Origin: Candidatus Thorarchaeota archaeon
Lineage (GTDB): Archaea > Asgardarchaeota > Thorarchaeia > Thorarchaeales > Thorarchaeaceae
Assembly: GCA_011364905.1 (NCBI GenBank)
Contig: RDNZ01000001.1
Span: forward strand, 32,001-96,000
Reading direction: 5' to 3'
DNA length: 64,000 nucleotides
The notes under the pieces were generated by a model, which saw nothing but the letters and a program-made list of their open reading frames with translations, was not told where the DNA came from and did not search any database. Every line of letters begins with the position of its first letter. The stretch's first letter is position 1. Of this stretch, positions 20,841 to 45,919 are shown in pieces. The position numbers and the translations under genes were made by a program.

Positions 20841-23800
20841 TTAGTCCAAGTCAATCCCTAGACTGCTTAAGAGGGCATCGAGGTCCGCCTTTGAGAGACT
20901 CTTTGCTTCTTCTAGAATGACATCAATCTCATCAATAGCCATTCCTTTCTTAATGAGCTTCTGTCGTAGATCCTCCAACTCCTCAGGTCTCTGTTCGAGA
21001 GGTATCTCCTCGGGAGCAGGTTTGCCCTCTGGTGGTTTGGCCAGCACATCAGCTCGACGAGCTTTTTCTTGCTCAATTACCTCCTTTAAGAATCCAGGAC
21101 GCTCACTTGCTCTCATTCTTGCCAAGTCTGCCCTAAAGGCATCCATCTCTAGAGCACCTAAGCCTGTAAGAGCTGCAAGTTCTTCGAGCAATTCATTAAC
21201 TTCAGGTACAGTGGTAACAATTGGATAATCGATAACCTCGTCTGGCGTCTTTACAAGCCTCAACGGGTGTATCTCCTCGTTCACTATCTCCCTCGCCAAT
21301 CCCTGTCTGGTTGGAGCGCTAGGTGGTTTAGGTATTCTCCCTTTGCTAAGAGCACGCATCATTCTGTTCATGTCTCTGATCTGCTTGGGAACACTCCAAA
21401 CCCTTACATAGACTACGATGAACAAAGCTACAAAGACCAGGGCAAATCCTCCCACAATGGTCAAGAATCGCTGAGCTTCCGCTTCTGCGCTTCTATCTGA
21501 CTTAATGTTGAGGACCAATTGTCCAGATGCGTAAGTATCCTTCTGGAAGTTGATTGTTATTGAGAATGTCCCAACTTCATCTACTCTAAAGAAGAGGGTA
21601 TAGATTCCATTTTCATCACGCTTCAAATTCTCCAGGTAGGTTATGTTGCCTTGGCTAAATACGGGTGATATGCTAGCATCAGGAATTCCAACAAGGTGGT
21701 CAAGGTCGTAGTATGTGATCTGAACCTCAATTCTTGCTCCTGGGCGTGTGTAGATAGTGTTGTTGGTAATGGTCAATGTCGTTGCTATGGGTCTAATTGT
21801 CAATTCAAGGTGTTTAGGAGCAATCGAGTATTTCCCTGTTCCAAAGTCTATGTCAAAGCTGTATGATCCATATGGAAGATCACTAGGAATATTCATTGAG
21901 TATGAACCATTTTCTAGGAGCTGGAGTGGAATATTGAACAGCTGAGTTGAGTAAGCAATACCATTTACATCAGTTACGGATGAATTATCTAAACGATTGA
22001 TAACGTTGTACAGAATACTGGATTGTTCATTAATAGGAACAGAGTACAGCTCTGGTCCCAATATATCTGCGGGAGTAACATAGATTTCAATCTTTGCGGT
22101 TACAACTCGAGAGGTGTAGTTGGTAAGATCAAATCGGACCACTAGATCATACAATCCTGGGTTCTCGACATTGATTGGTACATTAACCTCGTAAGATCCG
22201 TTTATATGTTGGATAACAACCAGATCTCCCCCTTCCCAACTGGCTAGCACATTGGCACCATAGATCAACGAGTTATGCTGAGTATCATTGTAGTAGAATA
22301 GAAATGATTTCGTGTCACCCCAATATCCGCTCTGTAGGATTGGGACTGCAGTTGCTTGAGTTGGTATAGGTAAGATAGTGATGACTATAGACTTGTATGC
22401 CGTAGCGTATCCCATTTTGTCTGCCGTCATCCGGAGGTATATGGATTGGCTCGCAAGTGAACTGACATCAATGAAAGCACTGTATGATCCATTTAGTAGA
22501 TCAGTGAAGGTACCACTCAAACTACCCAATGTGTATGATACTGTAGCACCAGAAACAAGTGCTGCATGGAAAGTATCATTGTATACCGCCGTCAAGGACA
22601 ATGAGTCGCCGAAAAAGACGTATCGGATCGTAGTTCCGTCTGACGACGCAATTGTTGTTGGAATTGGGACGATACGTATGTCAATGTTGGTCTCTATGAA
22701 CTGAACATTTGTGGTTACAGCTCTGATTGTCAATGGGAAGACACCAACAGCGAATCCGGTAACATCTACCGATCCAGTGTACCAACCTGGGACACCAGTG
22801 GGCGTAAGGCCAGTTACTGTTCCATTCCATTCCATTGTCACACTCGCACCAGTGACGGGTAAGTCAGTGACTGTGCTTCTCAAGTATAGATCGAAATCGA
22901 TTACATTGTCTATAACTGCGTCATAGGTTGACTGCAAAGGTACTATCTGACCAGGAGCTTTTGAAACCACGAGAGTGAATGATTTCTGTCTGGTTTGGTA
23001 AAACTCCCTTGATGCTGTAATCTGTGGATTGTAAATGCCAAAATCTGCATCTGACGTATCAAGCAGCAAGTAGTAAGAGCCGTCCCCAGCATCAACAAAG
23101 TCGTAGATTGTGCTAGCCCAAAGTAGGGTTGCATTGAATCCCTCTAGATAACTCAAGTAGAAGGGTTCTTGGACTCGGAAACTAATGTTTAGAACTTCTC
23201 CCCAATCTCCATAGTAAGTGGATTGAGTCAAGACAATTTGTACAAGTTGCGCACCAGGTTGTACCGCGACTTGCGCTTCAGCGACTTGATAGAAGTTCTT
23301 TGTGGCTGTCACGGTGATTGAATATTGTTGAGCAACCAGTCCGGTAGTGTTCAAGGTGAGCGAATACAACCCATTGCCATTCTCAACCCATTGATATGCA
23401 TTGCCAGTTATATCGGTCCAATCACACTGTATTACTGCGCCTTCTAGAATCGTTCCGTGGTCCAAATCTTCTAGGGTAAGGGCTATGTTAATTGGAACTC
23501 CAACTGCTGTTGAACCAGCTGGTGGTGCCTCAGCAAGAAGCGATGTATGGACTGCTCTGACCAGTGCGGGAACATTCAATGCACTTCGGTCTGAATAGAA
23601 TGGGGAACCAGTCCATGTTATTGTGATATTGAAGTACACAGTCCCTGGTGAGCTGAAAAGAGTTGTATTCAATGTTATTTGATAGACTCCGTTACCAAGA
23701 CTGCTTACATGATAATCAGGCGAAGACCAACTACTACAGAATAATGTAACAGTTGCACCTTCGATTCCATCACCTGTGAGAAAATCAATGTATTCGAGGT

Positions 23801-26800
23801 TCATTGTGATATTGTCAAAGTATGGGGTTTCCTCCACAAGTGGAAATAGAATCACAGTTGAACGATAAGTCGTTGATGCTTGCGTAGTTGCAGTTCTATC
23901 AGCATAGAAGGGTGAACCTGATGTCCAATCTATACTTAGTTGAATAGCATGACTTGTTACCAAACTAAACGCATCTAGAATGGTTGAATTGAAACTAATC
24001 TCGTAGTATGTTCCGAAATTCACAAGAGTATAGTCACCGGATGCTATCACAGTCTGACTGACTCCATGGCTCAAGGTTATGTCACTCTTGTCAATTGTGA
24101 TAAATGACTTATCTAAGAAGTCTTCAAACACAAACCTGAAGGATACATTCTCGAGGAATGGAGTGCTACCGGGAGTCTTCGTTATTCGAATTTGCGTCGG
24201 TCGTTCTATAATATTAGCAGACAGTGTTCGTCGCGATGATAGATAATAGGGCGCTCCTGAGAAGGATGTTGTTACATTGAGTTGAAATGTACCCGGTGGT
24301 CCGAGAGCCGCGGTGTCAATTTCAACCAGATAATCGCCATTACCATTGTCTGTGATCCAATAGTCCACGCCCAAGGTCAAAGTGAGAGGATCGCTTGTCA
24401 CCATGACTGATGCGCTAGTGATACCGATACCTGAGCTATCATCGGTGAATGTAATGACAAATGTAATGTTTGACTGATATGGTGCATTGTCTGGACTCTC
24501 ATAGCTCAACTGTGTTGACCTTTCTAGAACAGTGAAGGCGAAGTACTCGAAGTTGTCACTTACATAATTAGGTCCAGTGTATGCTATGCTTGCATTGATG
24601 TAGTGAACCCCAGGCGGACCAAACGCTGAGGAGTTCAAGACTACAGTGAAGTGACCATCAGACACTGGTGTTACATGATAGAAAGCAGCACCAATGTTCA
24701 GAGTGAGAGTACCAGTCATTGCAGTCGTTGTTCCTGAGATTATGTCGGTGTAGACGAACTGAATGGTGACATTGTTACCCCATTGCGCCGGAGTAAATGG
24801 TAGGTGCGTCAACTGAGAACTTCTAAGCAAAACCATGACTAAGAATTGCTGGTTTTGTACGTCAGCATAGAATGGTGTGCCACTCCAAGTCAGGTTGAGG
24901 TGAAGTGCGACTTGACCCACGCCACTTAGAGAGGAAGTATTGATGACTACTGTAAACTCATTAGTACCAGGATCAAAGGAGTAGGACCAATCAACTCCAG
25001 GCTCATTGATTTCGATATTCAATGATGCAGAGTCTGCAATCCGTTCTGTTCGGATGGAATCAACGAATGAAAACACAAGACTTGCGTCCTCACCATAGGC
25101 AGTCGGTGAAACGGGTGAATAATCAATGTACGTGGGGCGTTCAAGAACCATAAGGAAAACACTGATTGTTTGATTCTCATATAGCGGGAGGACTCCGGCA
25201 CTCCACAGAAAGCCGATATTCACTTGGAACAATCCTACACCTTCGAGATTTGTGCTGTTAAGATGGAACTCATAGAGTACAGTAGCTCCCTGATTAACGA
25301 TTTCAATGTGGAAATCGTCTCCAGTAACTGGATTCACGCCAATGGGTGTGAAGGAAAGTGACACAGCGCCAGTTACGTTTGAGATGTAGGTTGAGTTGAC
25401 CACATCATAGAACACAGCTGAGAATGTGAAGTTGTCCAGATAGTACGTGGCAACGGGAGCTGTTTCTAAATACAAGTCGGTTTCTGTGCCTATCAATCTA
25501 AACGTAGTGTCAAGAGTTCGAGATTGGAACTTTAGTACTGGTCCCGTCCAACTGATTTGGATAGAGATGTTTTTCCAACCGACAGTTGACCACTGTAAAG
25601 TTGGAACTGTGATATTATAATGACCTGAACCCAGATCGCTCACAGAATAGACCAGTATGGGCAAATCAGAGGGCGTGACTAGAATATGAACATAGCCAGA
25701 GCTATTATCTATACCTAAGTTTAAGTCTGAGTCAAGATAGTTGACTAGAATATATGCATCAACTCCATGCGGAGTCTGAAGTATTGGATCCTCAAGCGTA
25801 AACAGAGTTGAATGTGATCTAACTTGTACACTTATTGAAATCGTATGATTCTGCATCTTTGTACCAGAGAAGCTCACAGAAACTGAGGATGTTCCTAGCG
25901 GAGTGGAATCAGTTGTGAATATAGTGAGTCTATACAGTCCTACCGAAATCTCATTGATACTATAAGTACCGGACCAATCGCAGAGGATTGAATTGTTTAG
26001 ACCAGTGAGGGGTGTATTGTGGTCTGCATCAGTCCACTCGAAAGTCAATGAACCAGACTCGCCAACTGGAATTGCAACAACATTTTGCAGGTAGGTCACC
26101 TTTGTGTATAGTTCCCTGACTTCAACATAGAGCAGATACCGCTGGGGTAGAATATATGGTGCACTTCCTGTGATCTCTACAACATATTCTCCCATTGCAA
26201 CAAAGGTTGTATTGAGCCAGAACTTGTAGCTCCCTGGTGATCCTGCTACAGGCGTAACGCTATAGTAGCTAGACCAATTACAGTCGACAGTTCCCGAAAC
26301 AATTCGTGAACCGAGATAGTCCTCAAATCCTATCGTGAAAGAGCTGTTATATCCAGAGGGGATTGATAGTCCTGGCGAAACGGGTGCTTCAAGCATCAAA
26401 TTTGCATCGAAGTTGAGGTTTATTGTCAATACATCATGAACTGCATCGAAATAAGGATGAGTCCAGTCAAGATTCAGAGTGTACTGTCCTTTCTGAGGCA
26501 AGTCACCAGTATCAAGTGTAGCGATGTACTCACCATTGCCAGCTGTTCCGAAATACTCTGTACCAGTGGTCCAGTTATAGCTCATCTGCCCATCTGAAAC
26601 GGTCACTCCAGGAATATCAGTATCATTGATTTGAATTCTAATGAGAAACAGATCAGGATAGGTCACATTTGTTGTCCAGGTTACAATGGCATCCTTTGGA
26701 TTCAACAAGGTAGATTCGGATGCATGTATAATACTGAATGAACGACGGAAGAATCCAGTCTTGTTCCATGCAGAGCCTGATAGACTGTTGGAGCAAAATG

Positions 26801-28520
26801 CCTGAACAATCCACTCTCCAGCAGATGCATTGGCACCAAAGGTCAAGCTTCCAGAATTCGCATACCCAGTACTGTTTACTGTAGCCATCTCTGAGAACCA
26901 AGCTCCACCTGATGGTGAAAACACGGTTATATTGACTTGGACTCCTGCGAATTGAGCGCCAATGTCTACTGCAAAGAAGGCCGTATCAGATGCCCTGAGG
27001 TTCATCGTCTGAGCTGTAGTGCCGCTTCCAATATTGGTCATCAGCAAATCAGTGATCATGTTTGCGCCTTTACTTTTAACAAGCCAATATCCCCACCGGT
27101 CTGCATAGGGATAGGCAGTAACATTCGCAAACCAATCTGGACCATGTCCCTCATCCCATGAAGAGATGTTCACATTGGTTCGTAAGGGTGAGCCCACATA
27201 GTAAACATCCCGATTTTCAGGCAGAGAGATGTTGTAATAGTATCGATTATCATATCCCTCAGGAATGTCGGCGTAGAACCAAGTCAGGTACTCAACCAGT
27301 GAGGCATTCGTTGCCACAAAATTCTCTCCAAAGGATGTAGGGTCTTGAGTTGTAACCGTGGTTGATTCGCTTCTAGCATAGAGATTCGTTTCAACTGTAA
27401 ATTCAACCCATATGTTTCTGTTCGGGACTGGTGTTGATGGTGTGGGTGTCCAAGAGAAGGTCACATCAACAGGACTTGTGGTCCAAACTGACGTAGGATT
27501 CTGTGTGACATTACCAAGTCCAGGTACAGACGAGCCGCCGCTGATGAAATCATTAACATCGAGCCCGTTCATTTGCATGTTGAGATCGCTTGGGTCGGCC
27601 TTGGTCTTTAGATATAGCTCGAAGTTGTCAACACGTGCGTAGGGATTAAGGTCGGGATTATAGTTCACAGTCTGCTGGCTGTAAAGACCTACTGTAACAA
27701 GTACGCCATCTGACAGGTCGAAAATAGATAGGTCTGGGAGAGTAATCAATCCACTATCGTACCAAGTTTGGGCTTGATCAATATCAGGGAATGACTTTTG
27801 CCAAACACGCTGAGTGTAATCGTTCGTTTCAATTGAAACAAAGATAGCTACAAATCCATCTGCGCCCCAGTCAGAGTCAACCCAATAGTCCAGTCTAAAG
27901 CCTGCCCAAACAACGTCACCACGATTCACAGAGAAGGTTTGCTGAGCCCAGGCTCTCTCCCCTTCAGATGGGTCTCCACCGCCTGCGATCTCAAACTGAA
28001 CACAGTCATCTCCAGCACCATGTCCGTTGGCTAACCAGCTCGCCGATGGAGCTGCTCCTCCACCAATGCTCACCTGATTGAGAGACCAGCTAGATGGGCT
28101 GTTTTCCATATCGGGATCTTGGACCCATGTTCGATTCTCTGTAAGGTCAGATATTCCGGTAAATAGCTCATAGCCTTCCCAGTCAGTACCCATAGGAATC
28201 GAAACGGACTCACTATTGGTACTACTATTGCTTGAGAAGTATCTCATCTGATTGCTGGTGAAGGTATCGCTTCTATTTCCATACTCTTGTGCTGGCAATC
28301 CAGATGATGTACCAGACCACGTGGTCCAGCCTTGTTCAGCATTCAAATAGCCCGTTTCAGTAGGATTGGACATCGGAGAAGAGATTGTATCTTCCGGATT
28401 GGCCATACCATTGGTCGTTTTGCCGCTTTGTCCTTGTTGCAAACCAATATTCGCTGTAGCACTGAACACCATCAAGAATGTGATGAGTATCAATAGGGAT
28501 AGTCTATATCTTGTGTTCAT
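20841..28520 (-). CDS. Giant (2559 aa) single-pass cell-surface protein B: head domain + Ig-like repeats + cytoplasmic helical tail
   Basis: Signal peptide, ~100-aa repeats (G.Y.I.L.T..L, WTG.P.Y..R, F.Y.D), dense N-x-S/T sequons, one TM, ~180-aa charged tail. Confidence 0.88.
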   Translation of the reverse strand: MNTRYRLSLLILITFLMVFSATANIGLQQGQSGKTTNGMANPEDTISSPMSNPTETGYLNAEQGWTTWSGTSSGLPAQEYGNRSDTFTSNQMRYFSSNSSTNSESVSIPMGTDWEGYELFTGISDLTENRTWVQDPDMENSPSSWSLNQVSIGGGAAPSASWLANGHGAGDDCVQFEIAGGGDPSEGERAWAQQTFSVNRGDVVWAGFRLDYWVDSDWGADGFVAIFVSIETNDYTQRVWQKSFPDIDQAQTWYDSGLITLPDLSIFDLSDGVLVTVGLYSQQTVNYNPDLNPYARVDNFELYLKTKADPSDLNMQMNGLDVNDFISGGSSVPGLGNVTQNPTSVWTTSPVDVTFSWTPTPSTPVPNRNIWVEFTVETNLYARSESTTVTTQDPTSFGENFVATNASLVEYLTWFYADIPEGYDNRYYYNISLPENRDVYYVGSPLRTNVNISSWDEGHGPDWFANVTAYPYADRWGYWLVKSKGANMITDLLMTNIGSGTTAQTMNLRASDTAFFAVDIGAQFAGVQVNITVFSPSGGAWFSEMATVNSTGYANSGSLTFGANASAGEWIVQAFCSNSLSGSAWNKTGFFRRSFSIIHASESTLLNPKDAIVTWTTNVTYPDLFLIRIQINDTDIPGVTVSDGQMSYNWTTGTEYFGTAGNGEYIATLDTGDLPQKGQYTLNLDWTHPYFDAVHDVLTINLNFDANLMLEAPVSPGLSIPSGYNSSFTIGFEDYLGSRIVSGTVDCNWSSYYSVTPVAGSPGSYKFWLNTTFVAMGEYVVEITGSAPYILPQRYLLYVEVRELYTKVTYLQNVVAIPVGESGSLTFEWTDADHNTPLTGLNNSILCDWSGTYSINEISVGLYRLTIFTTDSTPLGTSSVSVSFSGTKMQNHTISISVQVRSHSTLFTLEDPILQTPHGVDAYILVNYLDSDLNLGIDNSSGYVHILVTPSDLPILVYSVSDLGSGHYNITVPTLQWSTVGWKNISIQISWTGPVLKFQSRTLDTTFRLIGTETDLYLETAPVATYYLDNFTFSAVFYDVVNSTYISNVTGAVSLSFTPIGVNPVTGDDFHIEIVNQGATVLYEFHLNSTNLEGVGLFQVNIGFLWSAGVLPLYENQTISVFLMVLERPTYIDYSPVSPTAYGEDASLVFSFVDSIRTERIADSASLNIEINEPGVDWSYSFDPGTNEFTVVINTSSLSGVGQVALHLNLTWSGTPFYADVQNQQFLVMVLLRSSQLTHLPFTPAQWGNNVTIQFVYTDIISGTTTAMTGTLTLNIGAAFYHVTPVSDGHFTVVLNSSAFGPPGVHYINASIAYTGPNYVSDNFEYFAFTVLERSTQLSYESPDNAPYQSNITFVITFTDDSSGIGITSASVMVTSDPLTLTLGVDYWITDNGNGDYLVEIDTAALGPPGTFQLNVTTSFSGAPYYLSSRRTLSANIIERPTQIRITKTPGSTPFLENVSFRFVFEDFLDKSFITIDKSDITLSHGVSQTVIASGDYTLVNFGTYYEISFNSTILDAFSLVTSHAIQLSIDWTSGSPFYADRTATTQASTTYRSTVILFPLVEETPYFDNITMNLEYIDFLTGDGIEGATVTLFCSSWSSPDYHVSSLGNGVYQITLNTTLFSSPGTVYFNITITWTGSPFYSDRSALNVPALVRAVHTSLLAEAPPAGSTAVGVPINIALTLEDLDHGTILEGAVIQCDWTDITGNAYQWVENGNGLYSLTLNTTGLVAQQYSITVTATKNFYQVAEAQVAVQPGAQLVQIVLTQSTYYGDWGEVLNISFRVQEPFYLSYLEGFNATLLWASTIYDFVDAGDGSYYLLLDTSDADFGIYNPQITASREFYQTRQKSFTLVVSKAPGQIVPLQSTYDAVIDNVIDFDLYLRSTVTDLPVTGASVTMEWNGTVTGLTPTGVPGWYTGSVDVTGFAVGVFPLTIRAVTTNVQFIETNIDIRIVPIPTTIASSDGTTIRYVFFGDSLSLTAVYNDTFHAALVSGATVSYTLGSLSGTFTDLLNGSYSAFIDVSSLASQSIYLRMTADKMGYATAYKSIVITILPIPTQATAVPILQSGYWGDTKSFLFYYNDTQHNSLIYGANVLASWEGGDLVVIQHINGSYEVNVPINVENPGLYDLVVRFDLTNYTSRVVTAKIEIYVTPADILGPELYSVPINEQSSILYNVINRLDNSSVTDVNGIAYSTQLFNIPLQLLENGSYSMNIPSDLPYGSYSFDIDFGTGKYSIAPKHLELTIRPIATTLTITNNTIYTRPGARIEVQITYYDLDHLVGIPDASISPVFSQGNITYLENLKRDENGIYTLFFRVDEVGTFSITINFQKDTYASGQLVLNIKSDRSAEAEAQRFLTIVGGFALVFVALFIVVYVRVWSVPKQIRDMNRMMRALSKGRIPKPPSAPTRQGLAREIVNEEIHPLRLVKTPDEVIDYPIVTTVPEVNELLEELAALTGLGALEMDAFRADLARMRASERPGFLKEVIEQEKARRADVLAKPPEGKPAPEEIPLEQRPEELEDLRQKLIKKGMAIDEIDVILEEAKSLSKADLDALLSSLGIDLD

Positions 28521-31500
28521 TCTTCCATCCCTCCAATCTCTTTTAGCAATGCATCTATTTCAGCCTTAGACAGGTTTCGGGCTTGTTCTATCATGAGATC
28601 AGCCTCTGTTTCTTCAATGCCCATTTTCAATAGACGCTCTTTCAAGTGAAGTAGTTCATCTTCTGAAAGACGCTCCTCAGCAACTTCAGCAGGGACTCCT
28701 TCCTCAGCAACCATCTCAGCTTCCGCAAGTTCTCTCGCCCGACGTGCACGCTCCTGTTTGAGAACCTCATTGATGAATCCAGCTCTCTCACTTGGCCGCA
28801 TCTTGTCAAGGTCTTGACGTAGAGTATCAATGTCATCAGGAGTCAAACCGACAACAGTGGCAAGCTGATCTAGAAGCAGTTCGACATCCATTACTGTGAC
28901 ATCAACTGTTGACAGCGCCACATCTTCCTCTGTCTTCTGGATTCTAATTGGCTTCAAATCATCATTCATCATTGCGAGAAGCATTTGGCGTCTCTGAGGA
29001 ACATCAGCAGGTTTCGGTATTTTGCCTTTTGACAGAGACCCTATCATTCTCCTAATGATTCGTAGCAGCTTTGGCACAGATAACACTCTGAAGTATAGTG
29101 CGCCTAAGGCAGCGAATAATACAAGAAGCATTGTGCCATTTCGGAACCATGCGACAAGTGCCTCTTGCTCAGGTGAGAAGCGAGTATAAACGTCAAGATT
29201 GACCTCTCCATCTGCATAGTTAACCCTGCTTAGAATGATTTTCAAGCTGTAGAGGGCTAACACGGGAGCACGAAATGCGATTGCATATGTTCCATTGTGG
29301 TAGTCGATATCAAGTTCTTCCACATGAACCAAATTTGCTGTTTGCACATTGTTGCTTGATCGGATTGTAATATCAGCATCCGTGATTGGTAAAGAGTGAT
29401 CACTGTCGAGATATGTGACATTTACGAAGAAGACACGACCGACATAGATAAATTCGGGCAAAGCAGAAGATACTAGCTCCGTCGCAATCCTGCGTATTTT
29501 CAAGGAAACATCAATCTCTCCTCTCGAGTAGTTTCCTCGAGATATGAAAATCCTGATTGTATAATTCTCGTCGCGATATTGTAGTGTTTGACCTAGATTC
29601 GCCTCCGTTGGACCGAAGACGTATGATCCGTTATTCAAATTGGTTAATTGAACGGCACCAAACTCCCAATATGCAGTAGCAAGACCGTCAGCTATCCAGT
29701 TTGCATGAAGGTCATCCCAATAACCAAATGTCATCGAGTAATCATCACCTACAGCAAACTCTGCTTCCGTTTTTCCGGTTAGCACGGTCCGAATTGGATT
29801 GACAAGCAGTTTCACCAATCCTGAAGCAAACCGAAAGTTCTCCTTTCGGAAGGAGATGGCTATGTTATGGGGAACAGTTCCTGCCTGAACAAGAGAAGTG
29901 TTAACCGTAAGTGAGTATGTACCATTGCCATAATCGAATAGCGAACCCTTGAACTGCTCTAATGTGTAGTTAGTAATCGCACCCGGTATTCCCTCGTCAG
30001 CATGGATATCATGGAAGACAAGAACAAATGTGACTTCCTCCCCATAATATCCACTAAGAGTGGCGTCAGTCACAATAACAATATCAGTATCGACAACTTC
30101 AACATTCAAAGTGAATTGGATTGATGAAGGCCTATAACCGTCCTTGTCACTCGAGATTATAACAGTCCATTCTTGGACACTAAGATCTGTGGTGTCAATA
30201 AGAGCACTGTAATACCCAGGCGTACCTAATTCGGTTAAATTCCCGACAAGCGGCCCTACACCATATGAGAGACGGGCACCGAGAACAGGTGTGTTTAGAT
30301 CTGTATTATTCAGATAAACAGTGATATTGGCAATATCACGGAAGTTCACAGTAACGACAAAATCTGAAACAGCTACAAGACTAGTGGAAAGCTCAGTGAT
30401 TTCAATTGTAAGTTGCATTGATACACTCTTGTAGTTGTCCGAGCTAGCTTGAATGAGAATCTGATGGGTACCTACAGAGGCTCCTGTAACAATAAAGTCC
30501 ACAACGTATTTTCCATCCGATGCAGACCACGGAATCTGTCCAGAACCTCCAACCCAACTATAGGTGACCTGACCATTCGTAATTGGTGAGCTGTCAGAGT
30601 ATATGAGATAATCCACTTGGAGATGGACACTCAATCCGTTGACGGTCGAAAGAGGATTGATCGATCCGGCAATTTTTGATGCAATCTTGCCAATTCGAAT
30701 TTGGAAATCTCTTTGCCTGCTCTCATAATTGAGGAGGACGGATCTCACTGTGACTGTGTGTTCACCAGCGACTATCTGCCAAGATTGCACGGTAACATTG
30801 TATATACCAGATCCAATATGAGTCATGTCGACTGTTATAGTTGAAATAGTCAGATTGACATATGCGCCAACAATGGGAGCTCCAGTTCTAGCATCTGTAA
30901 CATTGGCTTGGAAATTAATAGAGTCGCCCCAGGAGGGACTAGTAGGATTAAAGTCTAGCTCAATCTGAACTGGTACAGCTGAAAGGAGAATATCCGCGAG
31001 AATTGTATGATTTTGGTGCAAATACTTTGAGGCACTTACTGAGAATGAATACAAACCAGCATCCATTCCAGATGTTTGAATCGTCATTTCATAGACGCCG
31101 GTGTCAATTTCATGAATTGTTGCTATTGTTGGGTAAGTAGCGTTCCAATCACTCAAAACCGTCGCGCCTGGAATACCAACTCCAAATTCAATTGCAGTGT
31201 AGGTGATGTTGGCGTGGATTACATCTCCCAAGTAGTATGTTACACCTTGAGGCAGGGTGAAGCTAAGAGTCGTTGATACAGAATTAACAACCGCTGAAAA
31301 GCTTAGATTTGTTACATTTGTGTAATATGGAGAACCATACCAAGTCATATTGGCTGTGAAGAAATACCTGCCCAAACCAGACAATGTTGTGGTGTCTACC
31401 AGAATCTGATAAGTGCCATCACCATTGTCAATGATCCAATGCGTGAAACTTGTGGAATTTGCTGACTCTAATGAAACATCTGCCCCGGGGATTCCATTCC

Positions 31501-36211: not shown

Positions 36212-36312
36212 ATTGAGGCCTCCTCACTAGGCACGAATACTACCAAATCGACTGGCTGATTGACTAATGATTTACCTCTATATGAATAGATGCGTTATAG
36301 TGTGAGTCATAG

Positions 36313-36334
36313 AAATCGAAAGGATTGTCGATTT
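36313..36334. promoter_or_regulatory. Inverted repeat upstream of the giant-protein operon (possible operator)
   Basis: aaatcga-N8-tcgattt, overlapping a ttttcgaaaa palindrome, ~100 bp upstream of the start at 36211. Confidence 0.3.
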
Positions 36335-36449
36335 TTCGAAAACAAGTAAGATATGCCTATGACTTGTTTCAGATTCTCAATATTCAATAAGAATTCATGT
36401 CAAGGCAACAACTTCAGCCAAATGAGCCATTTTCTGAAACTAAATACGA

Positions 36450-38630
36450 TTATTCTCTCTTTCGAATTACAATGACACCGACTATTACAATAACGGCTGC
36501 AATACTTCCTGCAACGATTATCGGTGTCAGAATATACGGAGGTGTATTTGTGGTAGTGCTAGTTGGTGTTGATGAAGCCGCACTAAGATGTGTCAAAACT
36601 CCTCCTTCTGCTCTATTCATCCCCCAATCCCAAGCAACCACCCATATAGTAAGATTTGAGGTGTGCTCCAAGAAGGGAACTGACACTGACCAATTATATC
36701 CGTTATAAGCCATTGGAAAGCTACGAACAACACCATCATCTACCTGAACATAGAGTGTGACATTCTCCAATCCTGCAAGATTTTCGCTAATCATCGCCCA
36801 GTAGGTGAAAGGGCCAGTCCAAAAGTCGCTTGGATTAGTACCTCGACCATATATCGACGGAGGTATGTCATCAATTGACGAAAACATCATTCTTCGAGTC
36901 CAATCTCGAGCTTTTACCAAAGCACTGTATGCTGAATGCCAGTCCATTTCATTGTAGGAATTTCTTGCAGATTCAAATGAAGCAAGAGCAGCAGATTCCG
37001 CGGCATAGGTTACGCCTCTCTCATCGGATCGAAGATTGGATTGCTCCTCAAGAAAGTTTGACCATAGAAGAGCTTCCATCTGGTCCAAATAGGTCCCCTG
37101 AACCCAGTTCTTCTCAAAAGTGGAGGTACCGTTGTGTTCAGCAAAGTATCCCATAGGTCCGTAATAGAAGTCACTTGAATAGTGCTCATGTTGCCAAGAG
37201 TGCGCAAATCCGATTGCATGCATGGTCTCATGAAGTTGAGTGGCTGATATTCCATCCTTGGGAGTCACACCATCCGGGCGATAATAACGTTCCCAAGATT
37301 TCCAGATGACTGTCTGTCCTCCTCCACCCAGTCCGGTGTACGCTCTTCCATAGACATGCATTTCCATTTGCTTCTTTATGAAGACAACTCCAAACACATT
37401 GATGTTGTCGTCATTAACCACATATGCGGGTCTCATTCCACTGTAGATAGCATTAAACATGGACCCACCATCAACAATTGTTGTTCCATCTAAGTTATCT
37501 GCGGCGTATGTCCAGAACAGGCTGTTCCAAGAAGGTTCTTCATCGATGTCTAGATATTGGACATCAACCTCCCATTGAATGAAGGGATAGAGTTCCTCAA
37601 GATGCGCCTTTTGCATCTCAGCGTTGGTCACCCATTCGAGGCTATTGACAGAGGTCCCATCAGCTACATCCATGCAAAACACCAGCACCTTCAGTCTACC
37701 AACATCAACATACTTTGCAGGCTGATGCTGATATGGGAAAAGTAGTTGGCTGATAGGGTCCCAGATGCACTCTCTCAAGTAAACATTGAGTGCATCTACA
37801 TCTGCAGGTATGTCTAAGTTGAGAGATCCCACTTTGTCCTCTAAATCTTGAGTCCAGAAATCGTAAGACGTATTGATTTCTTCGCTCCACCAAACCTTGC
37901 ACCATTTCAAGTACCACTGATGAGCACTAGGGTCCACTACATACAGATTATAGCGTCCACCGAAGAACGGATAGTCCATCGTGACATTCGGATTCAGAGC
38001 GTTGTCCCACTCCAATCTAAACCAGTCTTGATTCTGTCCCGTATCAGGATCAAGGGGGTGGTAGTTGTACCAATGTTCCAGACTGTGATCCGCGCTGTCA
38101 AACTCCGAGAAATTAACAAGATAAAGAGTGTACCCAAGATCAGGCGGACTCGTGTATGGATTCTCTTCTAGCCAATCCTCCACTGCATAGCCATCAATGG
38201 CACGACCTGCTCGAGGATAGAATATTCGTTGTGGTTCGTCGAGGTTGTCCTTCTGATATAGTAGTGCGCTCTCATCAAGGCCTGTCCCTGTTTCGCTTCC
38301 ATTTATGGAATTGTCAAGCATGACTTGGCGAAGTTCGTCGTTGTATGCAGCATCTGCATAGACGATTTGATACTCGATATTATAGGTGATTTGAGCTGCT
38401 TCTGTAGAAAAGTTCCTGATTGTTGGTAAATCCTGTAATAGTAACGGTTCATCAATTAGAGAAGGATCATAACCCACTACGATGATATTAGCTGTCCAGT
38501 TTCTCTCAATTGGTTGAGGCCCCTGACTAAGAGTAGCTTGCTTTACTGGCTGTCTGTGATTATCTTGCACACCAAAAGGAGTGGCAATCACAAGCACTAA
38601 AGCAATACCTAGGACAAGAGCACGACGCAT
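36450..38630 (-). CDS. Membrane-anchored metzincin-like zinc metalloprotease
   Basis: Signal peptide (MRRALVLG), HETMHAIGFAH = HExxHxxGxxH, downstream PMGY Met-turn, Ig-like domain, S/T linker, C-terminal TM. Confidence 0.8.
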   Translation of the reverse strand: MRRALVLGIALVLVIATPFGVQDNHRQPVKQATLSQGPQPIERNWTANIIVVGYDPSLIDEPLLLQDLPTIRNFSTEAAQITYNIEYQIVYADAAYNDELRQVMLDNSINGSETGTGLDESALLYQKDNLDEPQRIFYPRAGRAIDGYAVEDWLEENPYTSPPDLGYTLYLVNFSEFDSADHSLEHWYNYHPLDPDTGQNQDWFRLEWDNALNPNVTMDYPFFGGRYNLYVVDPSAHQWYLKWCKVWWSEEINTSYDFWTQDLEDKVGSLNLDIPADVDALNVYLRECIWDPISQLLFPYQHQPAKYVDVGRLKVLVFCMDVADGTSVNSLEWVTNAEMQKAHLEELYPFIQWEVDVQYLDIDEEPSWNSLFWTYAADNLDGTTIVDGGSMFNAIYSGMRPAYVVNDDNINVFGVVFIKKQMEMHVYGRAYTGLGGGGQTVIWKSWERYYRPDGVTPKDGISATQLHETMHAIGFAHSWQHEHYSSDFYYGPMGYFAEHNGTSTFEKNWVQGTYLDQMEALLWSNFLEEQSNLRSDERGVTYAAESAALASFESARNSYNEMDWHSAYSALVKARDWTRRMMFSSIDDIPPSIYGRGTNPSDFWTGPFTYWAMISENLAGLENVTLYVQVDDGVVRSFPMAYNGYNWSVSVPFLEHTSNLTIWVVAWDWGMNRAEGGVLTHLSAASSTPTSTTTNTPPYILTPIIVAGSIAAVIVIVGVIVIRKRE

Positions 38631-38754
38631 AGTGTTCCCTGCCTTCTTCACCATATTAACAAACTGGTTCATGTAACCGCAACCAAACCACATTTGGCGC
38701 TTAATGAATATATACGCACATATTATATTAGGAAATATGATACTATTATCCTCG

Positions 38755-38867
38755 TGCGCCGGTATCGTAATACTACATCGGTTATCCTCGATATACCCAC
38801 TCGGGTAGTCGCGCTCGTTTCCGCAGGCTAGCGCAAAGATGCATCGATCCCCAAATCGGCCGGCGCA
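38755..38867 (+). ncRNA. Candidate structured small RNA with tRNA-like acceptor stem
   Basis: 8-bp terminal stem tgcgccgg/ccggcgca with internal hairpins; TATA-like ttatatta ~30 nt upstream; T7 tract at 38888-38894. Strand not certain. Confidence 0.55.
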
Positions 38868-38954
38868 TTCTCCTCACCCATCTCTGCTTTTTTTGTCTTT
38901 CAGGTACTCTTAAATCGAAGATAAAATCCCTCGACTTTGCCTGGAGATACCTAG

Positions 38955-40391: not shown

Positions 40392-40392
40392 A

Positions 40393-41001
40393 CTAGACCT
40401 TCACGACCCAATTCACTAGTTCAGAAGAAAGAGGATTTTCCTCCACAAATAGTTCGCGATATGAAGAATTACTTAACATAATCCATACATTTTGCAATTC
40501 AAAATCAAAACCAATGATTTTGAATGCTGTTTCGAATGCAGAAGGACGAAACGATATGTAGGCCAAAAACAATGAGCCCAAAAAAATCGCCGCATATGAG
40601 TAGATCCAAGGACTGATTGGCCTTCCAGCCCAGACATCCGCGCCAGCATAGATTAACGCGAATATGGATATGCAAACCATGAGAGATGCAACGAGAATGG
40701 ATAGAGTCCGTGCCCTCATTTCAGCGTTATCTGAAATTGTATGGTCTGCACAAACATCAACTAGAAAACTCTTGGTTTCTGCGTTTGCCAGCTGCTGTTC
40801 TTTTGTTGCAAGAAACTTTGCATCGGAGGCTGGATGTAGCCAAATCTTCTTCCTTGGATGCGTCGATATACGTGTGCATGTAGTAGCGGGAGCGCCACAG
40901 ACAGGACAGGTTTTGGGGAATCGTATTCTACTGATTTTCGCTCTCACAATTGGTTCATCAAAATAAACCCTATGTCTTATTGTGCTCAAAAGCTGCATCA
41001 C
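40393..41001 (-). CDS. Zinc-binding two-TM membrane protein
   Basis: FPKTCPVCG...VCADH, followed by two TM helices. Confidence 0.65.
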   Translation of the reverse strand: MMQLLSTIRHRVYFDEPIVRAKISRIRFPKTCPVCGAPATTCTRISTHPRKKIWLHPASDAKFLATKEQQLANAETKSFLVDVCADHTISDNAEMRARTLSILVASLMVCISIFALIYAGADVWAGRPISPWIYSYAAIFLGSLFLAYISFRPSAFETAFKIIGFDFELQNVWIMLSNSSYRELFVEENPLSSELVNWVVKV

Positions 41002-41059
41002 CAGACCAGAGAACTAGATGTAGTAGAGTAATTGAGTGTATCGAAGCAGGTAAGTCCTT

Positions 41060-42205
41060 TCATAAGTAGGCTTTCTCAACTTGGTTGTAGAGATAGTGCT
41101 TCATGCTATTTGATGCCACTACAGGTAGGTGTTCGTGTACGCTATCCAACGAGGCTACTTCCTGCGTTTTTAGTGAAAATCCCAACTTTTCGAAACTACC
41201 CTTGACCTGCTCTATAGCGTTTCCGAAATGTCTTATGCCTATCCCTAATGCTTCTAGGATTTTGTAGCCATAGTGCGTGAGCCAGAGAGAGTTCATTAGC
41301 GACGTGCTACCCTTTGTAGGGACAATTGCATTTTCGATCTCTCTTTTCCGCGCTTCTGCAATTCGTGCAATTAGCCTTGATGCCCTAGTGTTCCTCATCA
41401 ACTCTGTATCGAGGAAAAGAGTTGGTCCTCCATGCTCAATCTGTGCATCAAGTAGATCTATCGCTTTGTCAAAAATGGCTCGCTTTGCGGTTCTGTAGTC
41501 CATTGACTCCGTTGTGCTTTCAAGGAGGTTTTTTGGATTGCCATCAAATCCAGCCAATTCTTCCATACCAAAACCCAACATGAGACCTCTTTGAATGGCA
41601 TACCAATCATTGTTCGATACCTGACTCAAGACGGAGAGAATCCTCTGACGGAGGGGTGCCCAATCCATTTTATTTGCGAGGGCATCACAGGATTTCCACA
41701 TCAGAACTGGTTGCGCAGTCCATGGAGCTCCATCAGGCCTGACAAGTAAGAGACGCTCTGCCAGTTGGCTTGTTGTGAAGAGGAATCTCAAGATGCTGTC
41801 AGAGTAGATCACAACAGATGAGTCGAGCAATATGTGCGAACGAACAAGTATCGGAGTTATATCCAACTCCTTGAGCCTGTTCTGCGTGAGGTTAAGTCTC
41901 TTCAATGCATCACAATCTCCCAGTGGCCAGAGATTCAGTGACTCTAAATGGTTGTTCTCGACACGCAAATCTATCAGTGTCTTTTGATTCCGTAGTGGCG
42001 TTAAATCAAGTTCCTCAAGCATGTTATTAGATAGGTTGAGGGTCATTAGTTGGCTGCATTCTCTAAGATTCGAGAGATCAACTTTTATGGCCGCTCTCGT
42101 CGTCAAATCTACAATCTTGTCATCTTGCCTATACTTGGTTTCTTCTTGACGTCCGTGTGGACTCCAGTACTTTATTGCGACCTCTTCCATGCAGAACTCA
42201 ACCAT
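41060..42205 (-). CDS. Leucine-rich repeat protein
   Basis: LxxLxLxxNxLxxLDLTPL repeats (about 3-4) plus helical C-terminal domain; no signal peptide. Confidence 0.85.
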   Translation of the reverse strand: MVEFCMEEVAIKYWSPHGRQEETKYRQDDKIVDLTTRAAIKVDLSNLRECSQLMTLNLSNNMLEELDLTPLRNQKTLIDLRVENNHLESLNLWPLGDCDALKRLNLTQNRLKELDITPILVRSHILLDSSVVIYSDSILRFLFTTSQLAERLLLVRPDGAPWTAQPVLMWKSCDALANKMDWAPLRQRILSVLSQVSNNDWYAIQRGLMLGFGMEELAGFDGNPKNLLESTTESMDYRTAKRAIFDKAIDLLDAQIEHGGPTLFLDTELMRNTRASRLIARIAEARKREIENAIVPTKGSTSLMNSLWLTHYGYKILEALGIGIRHFGNAIEQVKGSFEKLGFSLKTQEVASLDSVHEHLPVVASNSMKHYLYNQVEKAYL

Positions 42206-42251
42206 TGATTGATTTTAGCGTCTACAGATAAAACTGAGTCCCTAGATGAAC

Positions 42252-45200
42252 TTACTCTTCTGGTGGTAAGGGCGAAGGTAGCTTTGTTTCAGCAGCTATC
42301 AGAAAGTCTCCGTCAACTGCTTCAAGCACCATTTGATGCGCTCTTCTTTCAGTGTATCCAAGAACGCTCGTTGCCTTGATAATTGCGTCAACGGAAACTC
42401 CATGGTGAATGTCCATACTATCGAGCGCAGAAGATACTGGACTAAGATCTTTGGGGAGGTTCCTCTTTACTCCAACGTATCTCTTCATCAACCGCCCATC
42501 GAAGTAACTTACGAAGATTGAATCAAAAGTGTCAGAGAGTGTTGGAGATCGGACCATCTGACGGATTGCATCATCCTGGTGGTCATAAAGTCCGCCGACC
42601 TCTCTACTGAATGTTTCAAGTTGTACCTTTTGTCTACTAGAGGCAGGTTCTACAGTGATAATGGCGCAAATGAGTGACTCAGTTTGCACTGCTGTGACCA
42701 CTTCTGTGATAGGAATTGCTGTCCACATGGGCTCATCAATTGAGAATTCTGATCGGAATTGAGAAATTGCTGTTATTAGTGAGCTAAGTATGGATTCTTG
42801 AAATGCTCCCTTGAGGATATTTGAGTACACAGGCAGTCCAATTGCACGATGAATGACAAGCAGACCAATTAGATTCTTTGCATCATCAATGCGTCCCTCA
42901 AGAGCCAGAAGTTCGAGGTTACGTCTTGTCATGGTAGTCATATAGAAACGACGGCTGAATGCTATTGCGACTACGGAAATCACGACAATAAACGCCCCAA
43001 TGAAACCTGCTCTTAGTGTAACCACGTAAAGCGACTCCGTCCCCGGGATTCGAATGGTGACATTTACACTATTGCTTTCAAAATAAGGCATGGCAACTTC
43101 AATAACGACCAAATATTCTCCAGAGCCAAAGCCCGTAGAGTTGAAGTCCGCCTCCCACCAGTTTCTAGCATAGTTAGGACTAAACTGAACAATTCCCGAA
43201 GTCCAATTACCAGTTACTTGTGCGTCGCTAAGGATTGAATTGCCGTTATCTTGGTCATAGAGAGAGATGGCAAGCGTGAATTCATCACCAGATTTGATCT
43301 CGCGGATTGGCGTCTGAGCTATAACGGTGAATTTGTGCAACAAACTAAATTCCGCTTTACCATATCCCACTTCAGTGCCATTGTGCCAGAAGGCACCGAC
43401 AATCCATTCTCCAACAGTTGAATTCACAGGGCCAAAAACATCTCCCTGTGTGACTACCGTTGAGTCATTGAAATTATGCAGAACCTCGCTCGCCCATAGG
43501 TCACTAGTGGGGAGATACCAACTCACCTCAACATTCGTGGCATTTCCAAGTGAATCGTTAGTTGCACCAAGACTAGCAAGACACCTAATTCTGTCTTCAT
43601 TGTGAAAGATGGATTCGTCAGCCCATGTGAGGTCCGACTTGTTTTGAACTTGAGTTGTTAGTTTGTTTACGTAATTTGGTCCGTGCAGAATTATTGTCCA
43701 CCAACCTGCGGAATTCGCTAAACCGGAGGCGATGGTTAGTTTCGAATCCTCTACAGACACACTAGGTGTGACATCCTGGCCGAGAGGATTCAAGACCTGC
43801 GGATCATTCCAGTCAGATGGGATATGCGCGATTATTCCTTTGTCAGCTGCTTCAGGATATGATTGGATATACGTGTATAGAGAAAACTCTGCGTGCTCAC
43901 CCATTTCAATGACATATGACACTCCATCATCTTCCAGGTTCATGGAACTCATTGAGTAACTGAAACGGGTCATAATACTGACTTTTGATGAAAATTCAAA
44001 GGAAACTGTCGTGTTCGATGAAAAGGTGAATGGGATAGATGCTTTCTCCCAGAAGGAATAATTCAACAGAATCTCCCCTTGACTAACTGTTCCATATACA
44101 GGTAGTGTGCCTAAAGGTGAACAGCTTACTGTCAGGTCTACTTGTTGCGGACTCGGAGCATTCAGAGCCGTTAGGGAGATATCATCAACAAGAAATGTAA
44201 GGAATTGACCATTAGCTGAATCGCCATCCAAATCAGCGTCGTTTTCATCAATCTGAATGTACGATGAAGGTGTGTCCACTTTCAAGACAACGCGAATTTC
44301 AAATTGCGGCGGAGCTTCAGGAATTTCCACTTCTAGCGGGCCAGTGGAAAACCAAACTCCTCTCTGTGTCATATTCGTGGGATCTATTGTCCAGTTCCAT
44401 AGCATTGATGTTCCATTGAGAATCTCAAAGCCAAATTCAAAAATGTCAGAGTAGTTCAAACCAATTGGTCCTCGCTGATATAGATAGTCCATTGAGAACT
44501 CGAATTCTTCTTCCCCCTGACTATTGTTGACCATCTGGTACCAATAAATCCGAGTTCCGTCGTAGTGTCGATATCCAACGCCCACTACTTCATAACCCTC
44601 GTTCTCAATGGATAGGTATTTGCTACCAGTGTCGACATAGGAGGTTCGCTGTCTTCCAGGTGTGTAGAGAATTTCTCGCTGGGCCAACCATCCATCAGCG
44701 TAAAATGCTCCATTCCCGGTCCAATCAATATTCGCACCAGGATTTCCAGTTTCAAAGGTCCCGTTCAACGCGTAGAGACAATTGAGGTCTCTAATGTCAA
44801 CCTCGACCTGTTCTGCACTCCAGGAGTCGTCCCCTGCACAAACGTCATAGCTGAAGGACACTGCTCCAACTGGAACAAGATCTGCACCTCCTGACGAATC
44901 GGACAGAGATCCTTCAAACTTGTAATAGTGAGAAAGACCTGGTTCATTCCCAGCTAGAGTTTCCAAGTAATCACTCCTAATATCCTCTAAGGGCCTTTCA
45001 ACTGTATAGTATCTAAAATCATCCACATGGCCATCGACCATTGTATCAGGTCGAGCAGCAGAATTCATCAGGTCATTTTCAGACAGAAAACCTACGACTG
45101 ATCCGACCCATGAAGTTGTAAAGGCATCCTCCAAAGGTTGAGTGTCTTCATCACCCCAATAGATTGCAATCTGGTTTGATGTGTCATCCCAGGTGATGGC

Positions 45201-45752
45201 TAAGAAATACCATCGACCAAGTACCCAGTCATTCTTATTCCCCACGATGGTTGTGTCCCCGCCCCAGTCTAATGTAAGGCGATTGTCAACAGACCAACGA
45301 GTTTCAAAGTCATAATCCTGCCCCCAGAACCGTCCAGTGGCTAGGGAACCATCCCATTTTATCCAAAGAGAAATAGTTCCTTGCGGTGATCCGAAGTCGG
45401 TTTGGCCACTAACACCGACTAAGAAGTAACCTCCTGAACAATCGGCAGAGTACCTGTTACCTTGTGAGCCTACAGGAGAGAATGCTTCAGAGCTTGGTTG
45501 AGGTGCCGTGTCAGTACGAGCGATAGTGTATGGTTGAATCCCAGCAGCTGAACCGAAATGTTCGATAGGAACAGGGTTGAGTATACCAGTTCTTGGTTCC
45601 GGGCTTTCAGAAAGGCCATGATATATTCCCTTGGAAAGTCGTATAGGATCTGAGAAGTTGGTTCTTGAAGTCGTTGTGCTTGGAGCTGCTAACGGTGCCC
45701 ACCCTAACATGCTACAGAGAAATAGTATCATGACTAGATGGGTCCTTTTCAA
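42252..45752 (-). CDS. Single-pass receptor-like protein: head domain with LamG insert, Ig-like domain, TM, cytoplasmic longin/roadblock-like domain
   Basis: LamG (GTISLWIK, WYFLAITWD, GHVDDFRYY); one TM; tail LIGLLVIHRAIGLPVYS..ILSSLITAISQF. TTG start at 45752 after GGAGG. Confidence 0.75.
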   Translation of the reverse strand: MKRTHLVMILFLCSMLGWAPLAAPSTTTSRTNFSDPIRLSKGIYHGLSESPEPRTGILNPVPIEHFGSAAGIQPYTIARTDTAPQPSSEAFSPVGSQGNRYSADCSGGYFLVGVSGQTDFGSPQGTISLWIKWDGSLATGRFWGQDYDFETRWSVDNRLTLDWGGDTTIVGNKNDWVLGRWYFLAITWDDTSNQIAIYWGDEDTQPLEDAFTTSWVGSVVGFLSENDLMNSAARPDTMVDGHVDDFRYYTVERPLEDIRSDYLETLAGNEPGLSHYYKFEGSLSDSSGGADLVPVGAVSFSYDVCAGDDSWSAEQVEVDIRDLNCLYALNGTFETGNPGANIDWTGNGAFYADGWLAQREILYTPGRQRTSYVDTGSKYLSIENEGYEVVGVGYRHYDGTRIYWYQMVNNSQGEEEFEFSMDYLYQRGPIGLNYSDIFEFGFEILNGTSMLWNWTIDPTNMTQRGVWFSTGPLEVEIPEAPPQFEIRVVLKVDTPSSYIQIDENDADLDGDSANGQFLTFLVDDISLTALNAPSPQQVDLTVSCSPLGTLPVYGTVSQGEILLNYSFWEKASIPFTFSSNTTVSFEFSSKVSIMTRFSYSMSSMNLEDDGVSYVIEMGEHAEFSLYTYIQSYPEAADKGIIAHIPSDWNDPQVLNPLGQDVTPSVSVEDSKLTIASGLANSAGWWTIILHGPNYVNKLTTQVQNKSDLTWADESIFHNEDRIRCLASLGATNDSLGNATNVEVSWYLPTSDLWASEVLHNFNDSTVVTQGDVFGPVNSTVGEWIVGAFWHNGTEVGYGKAEFSLLHKFTVIAQTPIREIKSGDEFTLAISLYDQDNGNSILSDAQVTGNWTSGIVQFSPNYARNWWEADFNSTGFGSGEYLVVIEVAMPYFESNSVNVTIRIPGTESLYVVTLRAGFIGAFIVVISVVAIAFSRRFYMTTMTRRNLELLALEGRIDDAKNLIGLLVIHRAIGLPVYSNILKGAFQESILSSLITAISQFRSEFSIDEPMWTAIPITEVVTAVQTESLICAIITVEPASSRQKVQLETFSREVGGLYDHQDDAIRQMVRSPTLSDTFDSIFVSYFDGRLMKRYVGVKRNLPKDLSPVSSALDSMDIHHGVSVDAIIKATSVLGYTERRAHQMVLEAVDGDFLIAAETKLPSPLPPEE

Positions 45753-45919
45753 CCACTGGCCTCCGATGAGAAGCTGGTAACTAGGCCGGAGTTTATGCCA
45801 CAAAACGCAACTTCCCAACTTTGCTGTCTTCTCATACGTAGTATTATCTATTTCAGGAAATGGTGTTCGAACTGGAACGCCAACAGGTGCATGAATTTAC
45901 CAGTCATAGGGTGATGTTT

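Follow-up and report, generated by a model that had tools for sequence, protein, structure and literature searches.

One head and two classes of cytoplasmic tail in a family of predicted Asgard surface glycoproteins

The window analysed here, a stretch of 64,000 nucleotides, comprises positions 32001-96000 of a contig (labelled C15) in a 3.08-Mb Asgard (Thorarchaeota-type) genome bin. It encodes three surface proteins, the giants P0001 and P0002 and the shorter P0003, which share one ectodomain head and end in one of two cytoplasmic tails of unrelated sequence, named tail 1 and tail 2. Their database homologues bear names that are almost all Thorarchaeota or Promethearchaeota. The three genes and the parts of their products are as follows; positions are those of the window, and residue numbers of P0003 follow the 1188-amino-acid (aa) frame opening at 45818 (open reading frame 42252-45818).

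20841-28520, reverse strand: P0001, tail-1 giant of 2559 aa with signal peptide, head, 17 stalk repeats, transmembrane helix and tail 1 (open reading frame)
26691-28193, reverse strand: P0001 head, residues ~110-610 (head hidden Markov model (HMM) on open-frame residues 126-715, E 1e-97; hhalign)
21489-26690, reverse strand: P0001 stalk, 17 Ig-like repeats each of ~100 aa, residues 611-2344 (jackhmmer repeat map)
21411-21467, reverse strand: P0001 transmembrane helix, residues 2352-2370 (hydropathy 2.88)
20844-21410, reverse strand: P0001 cytoplasmic tail 1, 189 aa (tail alignment)
28517-36211, reverse strand: P0002, tail-1 giant of 2564 aa (open reading frame; its TGA overlaps the ATG of P0001)
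34412-35884, reverse strand: P0002 head, residues 110-600 (hhalign, head HMM)
29180-34411, reverse strand: P0002 stalk, 17 repeats, residues 601-2344 (jackhmmer repeat map)
29075-29131, reverse strand: P0002 transmembrane helix, residues 2361-2379 (hydropathy)
28520-29074, reverse strand: P0002 cytoplasmic tail 1, 185 aa (alignment with 26 invariant columns)
42252-45752, reverse strand: P0003, tail-2 member of 1166 aa from the TTG at 45752 (start and orthologue length)
44859-45461, reverse strand: P0003 LamG (Laminin_G_3) domain, inserted towards the N-terminus of the head (PF13385, E 6.2e-07, 30.1 bits)
43341-44831, reverse strand: P0003 head, with a jelly roll like that of carbohydrate-binding modules (CBM), a beta domain and two macroglobulin (MG)/Ig-like domains (AF2 model)
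43023-43340, reverse strand: P0003 single stalk repeat, residues 827-932 (jackhmmer repeat map)
42954-43010, reverse strand: P0003 transmembrane helix, residues 937-955 (hydropathy)
42255-42953, reverse strand: P0003 cytoplasmic tail 2, 233 aa, with a helix, a longin domain as well as a small helical (winged-helix-like) domain (AF2 model, alignment)
42486-42878, reverse strand: longin-fold domain of P0003 tail 2, tail residues 26-156 (VIA, Foldseek)

Each of the three proteins carries an N-terminal signal-like segment and one C-terminal transmembrane helix, in agreement with the single-pass topology assigned to them in an earlier sequence-only reading of this DNA. N-glycosylation sequons lie almost entirely N-terminal to that helix (53 of 53 in P0001, 53 of 54 in P0002 and 18 of 18 in P0003), at a density of 1.5-2.1 per 100 aa compared with a genome median of 0.32. 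This near confinement to the ectodomain fits a glycoprotein with its N-terminus outside and its C-terminus inside the cell, and we assign all three as single-pass type-I surface proteins that are predicted to be N-glycosylated. The probable start of P0003 is the TTG at 45752, which has GGAGG 7 nt upstream and gives a product of 1166 aa, as long as its orthologues. P0002 ends on a stop codon that overlaps the P0001 start codon (ATGA), and GGAGGG lies upstream; by this arrangement the two giants are translationally coupled.

P0001 and P0002 are 32% identical from end to end. The sequence-only reading had claimed, from six sets of short motifs, that P0003 has the same head as the giants, and the alignment of the third protein with the giants was set beforehand as a refuting test if it proved non-significant. 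It is significant: residues 165-663 of P0002 align co-linearly by BLASTP with residues 401-909 of P0003 (48.9 bits, E 4e-9), and P0001 matches P0003 at 48 bits (E 9e-9). We refer to heads of the giant type as A-type and to those of the P0003 type as B-type. When 22 A-type heads were compared with 28 B-type heads by hhalign, they aligned with a probability of 99.75% and an E-value of 3.1e-27 over 558 columns, which place residues 110-707 of P0002 opposite residues ~330-938 of P0003. All six motif pairs of P0002 and P0003 fall in register in this alignment (WEG/WSAEQ, WYSTG/WFSTG, MDNVRI/VDDISL, PSQVNL/PQQVDL, GFWKITGHSAN/GWWTIILHGPN and GQWSVQAF/GEWIVGAF).

It might be argued that this likeness is only the generic similarity of beta-sandwich or Ig-like domains, and that the three proteins form no specific family. 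Pairwise identity between P0001 or P0002 and P0003 is indeed only 20-23%, and phmmer searches with heads truncated at the last two domains left the A and B groups unlinked at E <= 1e-3, so that profiles were needed to join them. However, the 558 profile-aligned columns are co-linear and include the jelly roll as well as the six motifs, an HMM made from the 2 A-type sequences of the window together with 41 B-type ones matches the window giants at E 1e-97, and ten columns are invariant over these 43 heads. Taken together, the hhalign E-value, the motifs in register and the head HMM exclude chance or generic Ig similarity; generic beta-sandwich similarity as the sole source of the likeness is refuted by them, and we give this explanation next to no credence.

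The AF2 model of the P0003 head, computed from the 43-sequence alignment, is all-beta with a mean pLDDT of 89.1, and its domains follow in the order N-terminal strand, CBM4/22-like jelly roll, beta domain and two macroglobulin/Ig-like domains. The jelly roll (model residues 20-230) superposes in VIA on the CBM4-2 module 4bj0_A with a Z-score of 13.5 (root-mean-square deviation 2.8 A, 155/166 residues), on the hyaluronan-binding module 4d0q_A with 13.3, on 1gui_A with 11.4 and on MAM domains with ~10, and the two C-terminal domains (model residues 390-600) superpose on the alpha2-macroglobulin MG domain 2p9r_B with 12.0. The likeness to CBM4, CBM22, CBM16 and the CBM70 hyaluronan-binding module is one of superposition; at the sequence level the head differs from these families in matching nothing in Pfam or in the PDB sequence search, and sugar binding is putative. 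Likewise, a PDB search with the head profile returned nothing credible, and Pfam searches with the entire giants returned sub-threshold noise only.

The claim that the P0003 head contains an inserted LamG domain holds. PF13385 scores 30.1 bits against a gathering cut-off of 27.6 over residues 140-280, and the domain forms an insertion of ~215 aa: it separates a conserved N-terminal segment (G-I-L-N-P-V-x-I-E..G) from the first W motif, two elements that join directly in the alignment of paralogues that have no LamG. Within the family, LamG has been inserted at the tip of one tail-2 subclade. Six P0002-type orthologues from other Thorarchaeota (P0112, P0113, P0116, P0117, P0124 and P0126) reach ~2890 aa and contain Pfam NHL/six-bladed beta-propeller domains; together with LamG, they point to accessory domains having been added to the family. 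B-type heads also show an acidic DxDxDG-like loop just before the last jelly-roll strand (VDDISL), read as DENDADLDGDSANGQ in P0003 and as DYDNNGIADG and DQDNDGDGYADG in paralogues, which is missing from the giants and may be a calcium site.

Below the head, an iterated jackhmmer search counted exactly 17 stalk repeats in P0001, 17 in P0002 and 1 in P0003, each of ~100 aa, which bears out the variable stalk length (roughly 17 repeats against about one) noted earlier. Four further tail-2 members occur in the same genome, with complete stalks of 5 and 10 repeats and another, cut at a contig edge, of at least 9. Three of these paralogues stand in tandem (C54:3-10825), the first of them cut by the contig end, and one more lies at C88:3-3971; none of them has LamG. 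A distal predicted ligand module on an Ig-like rod whose repeat number varies among paralogues is also found in bacterial giant Ig-repeat adhesins (6xi3 repeat; PrgB, 8beg). Those adhesins are wall-anchored or secreted, whereas the Asgard family has a C-terminal transmembrane helix, a large conserved cytoplasmic domain and coupled pairs of giants with equal repeats.

This equality holds within each of the tandem tail-1 pairs, at 17/17 in P0001/P0002 and 23/23 in a second pair of the same kind on contig C87. Equal repeat numbers combined with translational coupling suggest side-by-side heterodimers of matched length. The C87 pair belongs to an operon-like set (C87:19601-51490) in which a gene for a 210-aa leucine-rich-repeat (LRR) protein (LRR_8, E 4.7e-14) precedes two coupled tail-1 giants of 5889 and 3981 aa, with 23 stalk repeats each. 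Divergent from this pair, a further gene encodes a 426-aa protein with a Ras/Roc-type GTPase domain at its C-terminal end (Ras, E 1.8e-12). Tail 1 also ends the 5889-aa giant, which does not have this head, and the 3981-aa partner has the second half of the head only. Residues ~3750-3980 of the latter hold about four copies of the C-terminal helical module of tail 1 (..LSKAE.DALL type), a repetition that would fit a small independent binding unit.

The cytoplasmic tails of the two classes are unrelated in sequence. For tail 2, the AF2 model from 37 sequences (pLDDT 81.8) consists of a juxtamembrane helix, a beta-beta-alpha-beta-beta-beta-alpha domain and a small helical domain (tail residues 157-225). 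Its DSSP assignment (E28-35, E41-46, H49-70, E79-81, E86-90, E94-100, H106-123) is the longin core topology, and the top 50 Foldseek matches are all longin or roadblock proteins. VIA superposed it on TRAPP 7kmt_K with Z 12.0 (3.1 A, 123 aa), on Sec22b 1ifq_B with 11.8, on sedlin 2j3w_C with 11.5 and on sigma-adaptins and SRX with 10-11, in alignments spanning 117-126 residues; 120 chains reached Z >= 8. A longin-like tail on the third protein with no sequence relation to the tail of the giants, as first proposed, is thus supported by superposition. None of the 37 sequences reached a Pfam cut-off, the sole related match being MAPKK1_Int in one member (E 0.03), and a PDB search with the tail-2 profile gave no match. 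Longin proteins such as TRAPP Bet5/Trs23/sedlin, Sec22b/VAMP7, AP sigma and the Asgard longin and NPRL2-like proteins share the topology of tail 2 (superposition Z 10-12); the tail-2 domain differs from them in its place, as the cytoplasmic terminus of a type-I surface glycoprotein. Elsewhere in the genome (C42:12612-13490), a stand-alone cytoplasmic protein of 292 aa is encoded; its N-terminus matches the tail-2 longin HMM at E 4e-7, it has a weak Pfam Fuz_longin_1 match (E 0.006), and it is possibly a soluble relative or dimer partner of tail 2.

Tail 1 has 26 invariant columns in an alignment of 22 sequences and consists of a basic juxtamembrane motif (PKxxR...KGxIPxP), a core (DLxxMRPSERxGFxxEVxxQExARRA) and a C-terminal helical module. 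A UBA-like identity of this C-terminus (LLKMGIEETEADLMIEQARNLSKAEIDALL) was considered and found no support in Pfam or PDB searches; the module gave no PDB match and only sub-threshold Pfam hits to Pex14_N (0.039) and RecX_HTH1 (0.0066), in 3 of 22 members each.

How freely can heads and tails be combined? Among 139 database homologues, A-type heads always occur with tail 1 and B-type heads always with tail 2. A head-profile search across 1.84 billion cluster representatives matched 496 of them (241 at E <= 1e-30), and the best 143 new ones included 67 with tail 2 and 13 with tail 1, the remainder being mostly fragments. Nine odd tails of cluster representatives were considered as additional classes and rejected after scoring with the two tail HMMs. 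Six of them (plus P0139) score as divergent tail 1 with a YPKxVRK motif and three as divergent longin tails, although three of these matches are weak: P0272 has E 0.09 and P0254 has E 0.43, which exceed 1e-3, and P0277 has E 6e-4. One, P0153, is a fragment cut inside the stalk. In a FastTree phylogeny of 189 heads, the tail label requires 3 changes, 2 of them forced by supported branches, and the heads fall into two large clades, one of tail 1 (53) and one of tail 2 (122), plus a mixed zone whose sequences are divergent and odd in composition. So few changes indicate an old split into two classes with few if any later exchanges. The plug-and-play system of the sequence-only reading therefore stands as far as the variable stalk and the LamG insertion are concerned; its swappable tails overstate the case, each tail class being tied to its own head clade. 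On this tree the two classes are an old split and not the product of free domain shuffling. Modularity lies elsewhere, in the number of stalk repeats, in the LamG and NHL/beta-propeller domains, and in the use of tail 1 on another ectodomain.

A survey across the Asgard phylum, a check recommended at the outset, detected the head in 258 of the 400 genomes searched and in 59 of 85 genera; some families gave no match (0 of 31 and 0 of 22). Tail 1 is present in 82 of the 87 genomes of the class, including all 24 of high quality, and in 17 of 17 genera; its genes are usually in tandem, ~7.7 kb apart, and encode products of 2557-2631 aa. Tail 2 is found in 73 of the 87 genomes (16 of the 24 of high quality), in 2-7 copies each and often in tandem. 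The tails are better conserved than the heads, at 75-78% compared with 42-43% identity in distant P0002 orthologues and, for the longin domain of P0003 orthologues, at 60-77% compared with 44-60%. This pattern suggests that the tails probably bind specific cytoplasmic partners.

The near-universal presence and tightly kept length of the tail-1 giants bring in the main rival to the reading that we prefer, and the one that best fits these giants: a structural cell-envelope coat, in which the giants would be the main glycocalyx or spacer proteins and the tails would serve anchoring, sorting or lateral organisation, with no ligand-dependent function. The very high sequon density is in line with such a coat, as are the unordered "complex surface proteins" that cultured L. 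ossiferum bears in place of an S-layer (PMC9834061). The whole-head Foldseek matches, strings of beta-sandwiches from archaeal S-layers, phage lambda gpJ, PrgB, RPTP-mu and Eph ectodomains, also have S-layer proteins among the best. Archaeal S-layer glycoproteins (N. maritimus 8c8o, H. volcanii 7ptp, Sulfolobus SlaA/SlaB 8qox) resemble the family as heavily N-glycosylated beta-sandwich strings and give the best whole-model E-values (1.5e-09 to 1.3e-08), but at a TM-score of ~0.14, which reflects the beta-sandwich strings. They have no sequence relation to the family, and neither a long stalk nor cytoplasmic tails of this kind are typical of S-layers. Moreover, a plain anchor needs no 185-233 conserved cytoplasmic residues, better conserved than the ectodomain, and the tail-2 members, being multi-copy, variable in stalk length and patchy in distribution, are unlike a core wall protein. 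We therefore consider a purely structural coat unlikely, albeit with a real share of the probability.

Between P0003 and the giants lie the following neighbours.

41060-42205, reverse strand: P0006, cytoplasmic LRR protein, 46 nt downstream of P0003 (LRR_8 E 2e-4, below cut-off)
40393-41001, reverse strand: P0005, small protein with a CxxC pair and two transmembrane segments (sequence features)
36450-38693, reverse strand: P0004, membrane-anchored extracellular protein with HETMHAIGFAH (HExxHxxGxxH; motif in translation)

The gene order is P0003, P0006, P0005, an acyl-CoA synthetase gene on the other strand, P0004, P0002 and P0001. When synteny was compared in two related genera, the whole order was kept in one genome of the second genus, P0004 was absent from one other locus, and P0004 and P0005 were both absent from a third; the LRR gene adjoining P0003 was kept in 3/3 syntenic loci. 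P0004 had been put forward as a candidate sheddase, which our data do not bear out: the motif is the sole support for a protease, no Pfam or PDB match appeared at E <= 1, and the gene is absent from two of the three syntenic loci. The remainder of the window consists of housekeeping genes. A separate single-pass surface protein, P0007 (50412-51998, reverse strand; 528 aa), has 2.27 sequons per 100 aa, a C-terminal transmembrane helix and a short basic tail; searches assigned it to no family, and contig C78 encodes a paralogue.

The sequence-only reading saw in the three proteins an adhesion/signalling receptor system. As outside-in signalling receptors, they would change their oligomerisation when the head binds a ligand, and the tails would switch on alternative outputs, through a longin-GTPase route or a tail-1 partner. 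Their layout is receptor-like: jelly-roll head, beta-sandwich stalk, one transmembrane helix and a cytoplasmic output domain follow in the same order as in metazoan type-I receptors (Eph; RPTP-mu with MAM-Ig-FN3), which match by Foldseek at E 1e-7 to 1e-6 and by VIA at Z 10.3 (2v5y) and 9.7 (2c9a). This is an analogy of layout only; the tails of the family contain neither a kinase nor a phosphatase, and a common origin is unsupported. The longin fold is a known platform for small GTPases (PMC10933270), the tails are the most conserved parts, an LRR gene directly precedes the second tail-1 pair on C87 with the Ras/Roc GTPase gene divergent from it, and P0003 keeps its LRR neighbour in the syntenic loci. 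However, neither tail contains an enzymatic domain or one known from signalling, conformational signals would travel poorly along a stalk of 17-23 Ig-like domains, the surroundings of P0003 hold no GTPase gene, and the LRR adjacency is weak evidence because LRR genes are numerous in the genus. Ligand-driven signalling of this kind seems to us improbable.

We favour, with moderate confidence, the reading that these are one family of sugar-coated Asgard surface proteins with a lectin-like head, a ruler stalk and two classes of tail, and we infer from it ligand binding by the head, pairing of the giants and docking by the tails. The head would bind a glycan or another surface ligand, and the proteins would serve as adhesins or sensors, kept by their stalks at defined distances from the membrane (roughly 70 nm at most, in an extended state). 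Giants in tandem would probably pair side by side as heterodimeric fibrils. At the cytoplasmic side, tail 2 would likely dimerise into a longin platform that may serve a small GTPase, and tail 1 would dock a cytoplasmic partner. Several points weigh against this interpretation. The whole-head Foldseek TM-scores are low (0.13-0.22), and folds of the CBM-like and Ig/MG kinds are generic. Longin folds have other roles too, which do not involve GTPases, the cluster in this window contains no GTPase gene, and tail 1 matched no known family in Pfam, the PDB or the ESM Atlas. Heterodimerisation is deduced from gene coupling and equal repeat numbers only, and the syntenic block, compared in only two related genera, includes the housekeeping acyl-CoA synthetase gene.

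Asgard longin and roadblock proteins have been described as soluble, fused to GTPases or TRAPPC3, or as two-component fusions (PMC10933270; bioRxiv 10.1101/2020.10.19.343400), and we found in these accounts no longin domain that ends a surface protein; nor did we find a published description of this head-sharing family. What is new here is the one head common to both tail classes, the head tree, the recurrence of tail 1 on other ectodomains and the equality of repeat counts within tandem pairs. A bolder extension, which we regard as doubtful, is a pre-eukaryotic form of outside-in coupling. In such a scheme the lectin-like head, on rulers that differ in length, would report contact with partner cells or glycans, and either a dimeric longin at the inner membrane face would recruit or regulate small GTPases, as a membrane-anchored forerunner of TRAPP/Ragulator-type platforms, or tail 1 would tether heterodimeric fibrils to a cytoplasmic partner, possibly a cytoskeletal or LRR/Roc-GTPase one.

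The complex surface proteins of cultured Asgard archaea, which have no S-layer, are thought to mediate cell-cell contacts relevant to eukaryogenesis (PMC9834061), and the family is a concrete candidate for these so far unidentified proteins. In it the longin fold, a eukaryotic docking module for small GTPases, comes to lie immediately beneath the membrane, as the terminal part of a surface protein. A shared head with two alternative tails is also a natural experiment, in which the same ectodomain is combined with what would be different cytoplasmic partners, and it is this combination that makes the function of the tails testable.

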